From IMG/VR virus record IMGVR_UViG_2917881069_000006: 41,465 bases of DNA, one strand, 5' to 3'. Shown here piece after piece: positions 26,678 through 26,813 of this stretch. Both the position numbers and the translations under genes were made by a program. This DNA is from a virus (taxonomy: Duplodnaviria > Heunggongvirae > Uroviricota > Caudoviricetes). Position 1 is the first letter of the stretch, and every line of letters begins with the position of its first letter. Under the pieces are notes generated by a model. The model was not told the origin of the DNA, ran no database searches, and worked only from the letters and a program-made list of their open reading frames with translations.

Positions 26678-26706
26678 AAACACAAAAACCCGCTCATTAG
26701 CGGGTT
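26678..26706 (-). terminator. intrinsic terminator downstream of Q (candidate tR' of the late operon)
   Basis: Stem CCCGCT-aatg-AGCGGG followed by TTTTTGTGTTTT on the minus strand; about 110 nt after the Q stop. Confidence 0.55.
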
Positions 26707-26733
26707 TTCTACTTTTTCTCAACACCGGACATA

Positions 26734-26762
26734 CAAAGCCCATCGTTGAGAAAATCCTATCC
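26734..26762 (-). promoter_or_regulatory. candidate late promoter pR' (Q antitermination target)
   Basis: -35 TTGCAT (26757-26762), 17-nt spacer, -10 TAGGAT (26734-26739), located between the Q stop and the terminator. Confidence 0.4.
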
Positions 26763-26813
26763 ATATTTTTTGAAAAATGCAAGCATCATGTCGATATCTT
26801 CGGCGAAAATTAT

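Follow-up and report, generated by a model that had tools for sequence, protein, structure and literature searches.

In bacteriophage lambda, the terminated late RNA is the 194-nt 6S RNA. Phages of the Q-lambda family have their Q-binding element upstream of both the start site (+1) and the pause element, and the 'arm' of lambda Q contacts this element as well as region 4 of sigma. A Q-dependent late cassette is made up of a Q gene, the promoter pR', a pause element, a terminator, and the downstream genes (PMC9388147). At lambda pR', the sequence AACGAT at +1..+6 is a -10-like sigma-dependent pause element (PMC7876045; PMC9388147), and the sigma-dependent pause occurs at +16/+17 (PMC7876045). 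Residues 1-45 of lambda Q, among which G39 is needed, make up a torus on the RNA exit channel, through which the RNA 5' end is threaded by 15-16 nt (PMC9388147).

Related cassettes are known from other phages and prophages. The record of phage phi80 (NC_021190) annotates pR', a gp17(Q) site in the spacer of this promoter, and a terminator located ~45-75 nt past the start. In the Stx1 and Stx2a phages, constitutive transcription from pR' is halted at tR' in lysogens, which yields the small RNA StxS; its leader of 258 nt, which RNase E trims to 74 nt, is paired with a 144-aa Q (PMC7547250). The Qin prophage of Escherichia coli K-12 carries a like cassette after ydfT (quuQ), and the records of phages SfV and Ayreon annotate a terminator at the corresponding position.

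Here we analyze a candidate pR'-tR' unit downstream of the Q gene in a 41,465-nt viral DNA (Caudoviricetes; IMG/VR record IMGVR_UViG_2917881069_000006), the whole of which is referred to as the window. We consider the unit, with a probability of about 85%, to be the cassette that makes late-gene expression Q-dependent in a lambda-like prophage of the E. coli Qin / Shigella SfV type. The whole unit, the Q gene, and the late genes are on the minus strand, and the coordinates of most minus-strand features are given in the direction of reading.

The Q protein and the late genes

[quoted passage not shown] The protein also matches lambda Q in PDB entry 7UBM (E = 3.4e-38), in two aligned blocks on either side of an insertion. 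The alignment with lambda Q shows little variation in residues 1-45, where G39 is kept, or in the VTR at the C terminus. The insertion of ~40 aa, at residues ~121-159 (window 27090..27210, minus strand), carries a second CxxCxGxG zinc motif and is placed in the 'arm'; in a clade of 273-aa Q proteins the insertion is longer still. We count this arm insertion as a point against reading the locus as a standard cassette.

The first late genes downstream of the unit form a lysis cassette (24404..25556, minus strand; identified by Pfam and the list of open reading frames), which consists of genes for an S21-type holin (25556..25341), a lysozyme (25341..24835), and Rz (24859..24404). The genes for Nu1, gpA, the portal, J, and the tail fibre come next on the same strand, to about position 330. 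The order of Q, promoter, pause element, terminator, and lysis genes is that of the lambda pR'-qut-tR' region. Unlike in lambda, where Q has no extra zinc motif, tR' and the holin gene of the window are separated by a cspB-like cold-shock gene, which is preceded by a cspA-type 5' UTR of its own (26214..26606, coding sequence 26445..26230, minus strand; Rfam RF01766, 158 bits; Pfam CSD). This gene is annotated as cspB by RefSeq in the 99.7% identical strain SF-468, and it is followed by a second intrinsic terminator (26030..26011, minus strand), in which the terminator scan found 8 pairs, 5 of them G-C. Since both of them precede the holin gene, the Q-modified polymerase would have to cross a cold-inducible gene and a second terminator. 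In K-12 Qin, cspF and ynfS (opposite strand) are inserted between tR' and cspB, whereas in the window tR' lies directly before the cspB promoter. Apart from the csp promoter, the region between Q and the lysis genes contains no other candidate that combines a promoter with a pause element.

Three further features of the window were observed. The small zinc-ribbon gene ynfU (25778..25948, plus strand) is antisense to the late transcript. In the early-right prophage region, at 31946..32127 (minus strand), the C4 antisense RNA (67.5 bits) and the Hfq-binding RNA isrK (54.8 bits) have adjoining matches that both exceed the Rfam gathering scores. Finally, a 466-aa large serine recombinase with Resolvase, Recombinase, and zinc-ribbon domains is encoded at 29939..31339 (minus strand) inside the replication/nin region, which is an unusual place for it in a lambda-like prophage.

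The predicted late promoter, the pause element, and the 5' end of the leader

The predicted promoter pR' consists of the -35 hexamer TTGCAT (26782..26777), the 17-nt spacer TTTTCAAAAAATATGGA (26776..26760), and the -10 hexamer TAGGAT (26759..26754), all on the minus strand. The two hexamers agree with the sigma-70 consensus at 7 of 12 positions and were not listed by the consensus scan. With up to 2 mismatches, their pattern occurs twice in the window, as compared to 4.0 occurrences expected. The hexamers by themselves are no better than chance, and the case for the promoter is one of homology. Beyond the -10 hexamer, a gap of 6 nt (TTTCTC) leads to AACGATGGG (26747..26739), that is, AACGAT followed by GGG, which is identical to its counterpart at lambda pR' and stands at the same distance from the -10 hexamer (TAAATT-TGACTC-AACGATGGG in lambda). 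The composite pattern TANNNT-N6-AACGATGGG was found once in the window, with 0.19 occurrences expected when at most 1 mismatch is allowed. It is this exact 6-nt distance, together with the conservation of the arrangement in relatives, that makes the promoter credible.

Conservation was assessed in 17 GTDB species-representative loci, 80 IMG/VR loci, and 11 diverse phages of the Q-lambda family. About 100 related loci, in which the identity of Q ranges from 100% down to 40%, share the promoter, the 6-nt gap, AACGATGGG, and the terminator, and the position and spacing of the hexamers are also those of lambda and phi80. Among the GTDB loci (Q 100%-40% identical), which include the genera Escherichia, Mangrovibacter, Kosakonia, Phytobacter, Atlantibacter, Scandinavium, Buttiauxella, and Entomohabitans, 16 of 17 retain the -35 hexamer, the 17-nt spacer, the -10 hexamer, the 6-nt gap, the pause element, and the terminator, with the single exception of locus L019. 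The strict pattern is present in 76/80 IMG/VR loci (Q 96-100% identical); three others are off by one base, and one ends before the region. The architecture was also found in most of the 11 diverse phages sampled.

TTGCAT is found in most of the 76 pattern-matching IMG/VR relatives and is the annotated -35 hexamer of phi80, while lambda has TTGACT there. The -10 hexamer of relatives, at the same place, is TAAGAT, TAGGAT, or TAAAAT. Since TAGGAT is common to 23/76 IMG/VR loci and also occurs in the Mangrovibacter, Kosakonia, Phytobacter, and Buttiauxella copies, we regard it as a regular variant rather than as a sign of decay.

The spacer differs in sequence from that of lambda and contains a conserved core, TTCAAAAA (26774..26767, minus strand), which is retained in nearly all relatives of the 250-aa Q clade, down to 63% identity of Q. 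In the 273-aa Q clade the core is TTCCCGAA, and in phi80 it is TCGCGGA, annotated as the gp17(Q) binding site. A binding element specific for Q would be expected to vary between Q clades as this spacer core does, and we infer from this conservation and from the phi80 annotation that TTCAAAAA may be the core of the Q-binding element. In other respects the phi80 layout is that of the window, with a Q of the same family, the sequence TGGA before the -10 hexamer, and a short leader; it differs in its Q, which is ~35% identical to lambda Q, in its pause element (AACGCT), and in its spacer core and terminator hairpin.

By its lambda-like spacing, the start site is predicted at 26747, so that AACGAT would occupy +1..+6. 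This element is near-invariant among relatives and is, at the level of sequence, a sigma-dependent pause element of the lambda type. The consensus of the elemental pause is G-10 Y-1 G+1, and U17-G18 of the window leader, with the G at +8, fits it. The geometry of lambda pR' places the predicted sigma-dependent pause and the loading of Q (+16/+17) at 26731..26732, minus strand (PMC7876045; PMC9388147).

A minimum-free-energy fold predicts a 5'-terminal hairpin in the leader (+1..+27, 26747..26721, minus strand), formed by AACG/UGUU and GGGC/GUCC pairs, and a similar 5' hairpin is predicted for lambda. When 29 leaders were aligned with MAFFT, RNAalifold found no consensus structure, because loops of unequal length shift the hairpins out of register; 27 distinct leaders were folded singly instead. 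The pairing of positions 1-4 with 24-27 is predicted in most of them, including those of mEp237, a Proteus phage, and lambda. AACG of the pause element (+1..+4) pairs in these folds with UGUU or CGUU at +24..+27, for which the lambda equivalent is CAACGA/UCGUUG, and the 4:24 pair is variously G:C, G.U (window), or A:U (leader L044). Complementarity between CTCAAC and GTTGAG, which would reach upstream of +1 (-3..+30), was inconsistent across the relatives.

The terminator, the leader length, and the mobile module

The intrinsic terminator tR' (26677..26709, minus strand; found by scan and fold) has its stem at 26709..26684 and a U-tract that extends to 26677. The stem comprises 11 pairs with the core CCCGCT/AGCGGG, the arms GAAAACCCGCU and AGCGGGUUUUU, and the loop AATG (AAUG in the RNA), and is followed by TTTTTGTGTTTT, the RNA of which begins GUGUUUU. 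It lies between the predicted pause site and the late genes, 44 nt from the end of the -10 hexamer, and spans +39..+64. In the terminator scan, tR' is the top-ranked site on both strands; it has an A-tract on one side and a T-tract on the other, and in either direction it scores as a terminator. The 68-nt RNA that begins at +1 folds with -23.2 kcal/mol (z = -4.4), and none of 200 shuffled sequences folds as well, which places tR' well beyond chance. By analogy with K-12 (see below), the 3' end of the terminated RNA is likely at 26683..26681, so that the RNA would be ~65-67 nt long. It is predicted to fold into two hairpins, one at the 5' end and the U-tailed one of the terminator, joined by an A-rich single-stranded linker, AGAAAAAGUAGAAAA, with ARN-like repeats. 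A search of Rfam over the interval gave only sub-threshold matches, to the rnk leader (27 bits) and the Trp leader (22 bits); both are far under the gathering scores, and we read them as generic terminator-like matches and dropped these identities.

These results agree in part with a sequence-only reading of the same DNA, which had proposed a candidate pR'-tR' unit downstream of Q in which TTGCAT-17-TAGGAT is followed within about 50 nt by a strong terminator, yielding an RNA much shorter than the 6S RNA of lambda. Its hexamers, spacing, terminator, and coordinates were correct, and the strength of the terminator, the short RNA, and the assignment to a pR'-tR' unit are supported by the fold, the spacing of AACGATGGG, the conservation, and the family of the Q gene; the minus strand was left unstated and AACGATGGG went unnoticed. 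The further suggestion that the pause and Q-binding elements would have to be compressed into the interval finds no support, as the promoter, the 6-nt gap, and AACGAT have exactly the lambda spacing. The candidate Q-binding, pause, and Q-loading elements all fall between 26782 and ~26731. Since Q binding, pausing, and threading of the RNA would take place between the -35 hexamer and ~+17, all that Q loading needs would be complete more than 20 nt before the stem at +39.

The ~66-nt leader of the window lacks ~130 nt as compared to lambda, a stretch for which we know of no role in Q loading. In every examined non-lambda relative with a recognizable pause element, the stem of tR' ends at +50..+78. 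Short leaders of this kind are found in mEp237, in phi80, in one phage each of Proteus, Klebsiella, and Serratia, in the whole Qin/SfV clade, and in the 273-aa-Q clade, in which the cassette precedes tRNA genes or stx2a. Leaders still shorter than that of the window, with the stem end at +50 to +53, were found in the Buttiauxella, Entomohabitans, Atlantibacter, and mEp237 copies. From these loci, a leader of ~66 nt appears to be normal for this Q family and the 194 nt of lambda to be the exception, which P22, with a Q 96-97% identical to lambda Q, presumably shares. Because the long leader of lambda is an outlier within its own Q family, the leader past ~+25 would be dispensable for Q loading.

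A natural recombinant (locus L068:1890-2700, IMG/VR UViG_2565956633_000004) joins a Q gene and promoter of the window type, 92% identical to the window up to AACGATGGG, to a sequence that is 98.7% identical to lambda over 600 nt and covers the full 194-nt 6S leader and tR'. That a window-type Q and promoter are carried on the lambda leader lends support to the view that the stretch missing from the window is not needed for Q loading. The two parts are joined exactly at AACGATGGG (equivalent to window 26739..26747), and it looks as if Q modules and leader/late modules recombine at the pause element that they share.

SfV, mEp460, Ayreon, and the Stx2c-converting phages are 93-94% identical to the window across Q, pR', and tR', and differ in the -10 hexamer (TAAGAT), in the terminator loop, and in the genes past the terminator. 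In BLAST, the identity with SfV, mEp460, Ayreon, and 15 Stx2c phages spans Q to 26680, the last base of the terminator, and then stops there, at a mosaic boundary. Since homology with so many phages ends at this base, Q, pR', and tR' form a mosaic module that moves as a unit. Among 5426 complete E. coli genomes, 2365 matched part of the query. Across lineages, the hairpin varies in sequence while its place is nearly fixed: the stems CCCGCT/AGCGGG, CCCGC/GCGGG, CCTCGC/GCGGGG, CCTCGC/GCGAGG, and ACCGC/GCGGT are all G+C-rich and followed by a T-tract, and the stems, including GCCCGAGG/CCTTGGGC in phi80, always fall within +26..+78.

The proposed switch, a probable Qin transcript, and alternative explanations

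If the locus works as lambda pR' does, a constitutive sigma-70 promoter pR' would initiate transcription at ~26747 on the minus strand, and region 2 of sigma would rebind the -10-like AACGAT at +1..+6, holding the polymerase at ~+16/+17. Without Q, the polymerase would escape and stop at tR' (+39..+64), releasing a two-hairpin RNA of ~65-67 nt. When Q is present, it would bind its site in the promoter spacer and engage the paused complex, its conserved N-terminal 45 residues, including G39, forming a nozzle on the RNA exit channel, probably with the involvement of NusA. The modified polymerase would then pass tR', cspB, and the terminator at 26030..26011, run antisense across ynfU, and reach the genes for holin, lysozyme, and Rz and then those for the head and tail, which extend over ~24 kb and include Nu1, gpA, the portal, J, and the tail fibre.

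The cassette of K-12 Qin provides an experimental anchor. Its Q is 93% identical to that of the window, and the two cassettes are the same in layout, the K-12 copy having TAAAAT as the -10 hexamer and a terminator that differs by one loop base and one tail U. In MG1655, the lambda-like +1 is at 1642422(-) and the terminator stem ends at 1642364. The 3' end at 1642356(-) in the Term-seq data of MG1655 is dominant and classed as 'orphan'; it was detected under at least two conditions of growth, and its counts averaged 103,591 and 55,368 (Adams et al. 2021, Supplementary file 1, PMC7815308). This position (NC_000913.3; locus L007) is 8 nt past the terminator stem of Qin, and, if the start site is lambda-like, the distance from 1642422 to 1642356 corresponds to an RNA of 67 nt. 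We conclude that K-12 probably makes an unannotated 67-nt leader RNA from pR'. Neither the leader sequence nor 'quuQ' brought up anything relevant in the literature.

The abundance of this 3' end also bears on an extension of the cassette reading, in which the ~66-nt terminated RNA would in addition act in trans, as an Hfq-dependent small RNA in lysogens, in the manner of StxS. There is a precedent in the pR'-tR' region of the Shiga-toxin phages (PMC7547250), and the predicted 5' hairpin, the A-rich linker AGAAAAAGUAGAAAA, and the U-tailed terminator would suit such a role. On the other hand, StxS derives from a different leader, of 258 nt and paired with a 144-aa Q, and the linker of the window is not conserved even among relatives with 97-98% Q identity, which argues against a conserved seed; we hold a function in trans of this kind to be unlikely.

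The same 3' end lies 133 nt past the ydfT stop codon and could alternatively belong to a Q (ydfT) mRNA extended by read-through, in which case it would not stem from pR'. On this account, the hairpin would mainly end the early-right/Q transcript and serve as a bidirectional insulator from the cold-shock genes, the hexamers would not be a working promoter, and the late promoter would be elsewhere or dead. The A-tract and T-tract on the two sides of a hairpin that scores as a terminator on both strands, and hexamers that match the consensus at 7/12 positions and do not exceed chance, are compatible with such an arrangement. However, it leaves unexplained why AACGATGGG stands 6 nt past a -10-like hexamer, as in lambda, and why the spacer core is invariant within a Q clade and changes with it; the layout persists to 40% Q identity, distant genera have TAGGAT in common, which is thus no product of decay, and the csp promoter apart, no other site between Q and the lysis genes combines a promoter with a pause element. 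We therefore judge a mere gene-end terminator to be very unlikely. A start from the overlapping match TCGACA-18-AAAAAT (26794..26765), although this is the sole promoter-like site that the scan listed in the interval (9/12), is scarcely credible and was rejected, because its -35 hexamer lacks conservation (K-12, SfV, and other relatives have GCGACA or ATGACA), its -10 hexamer is merely the A-run of the conserved spacer, and a start near 26758 would lie inside TAGGAT and break the lambda-like spacing to AACGAT.

Read as a Q-dependent late cassette, the locus is an ordinary member of a well-understood switch and implies no new mechanism. It is conceivable, though doubtful, that the ~66-nt leader, as an abundant constitutive prophage RNA present in a large proportion of E. 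coli genomes, among them K-12 with its Qin prophage, has its own function, be it as a StxS-like Hfq-dependent small RNA acting in trans or through a conserved 5' hairpin that would stabilize the late mRNA or assist the loading of Q. For annotation, the analysis assigns positions to the predicted late promoter, its pause element, tR', and a likely Q-binding core in a very common Q module, that of Qin, SfV, and the Stx2c-type phages, and it offers a probable identity for the hitherto unexplained 'orphan' 3' end that Term-seq recorded in K-12.
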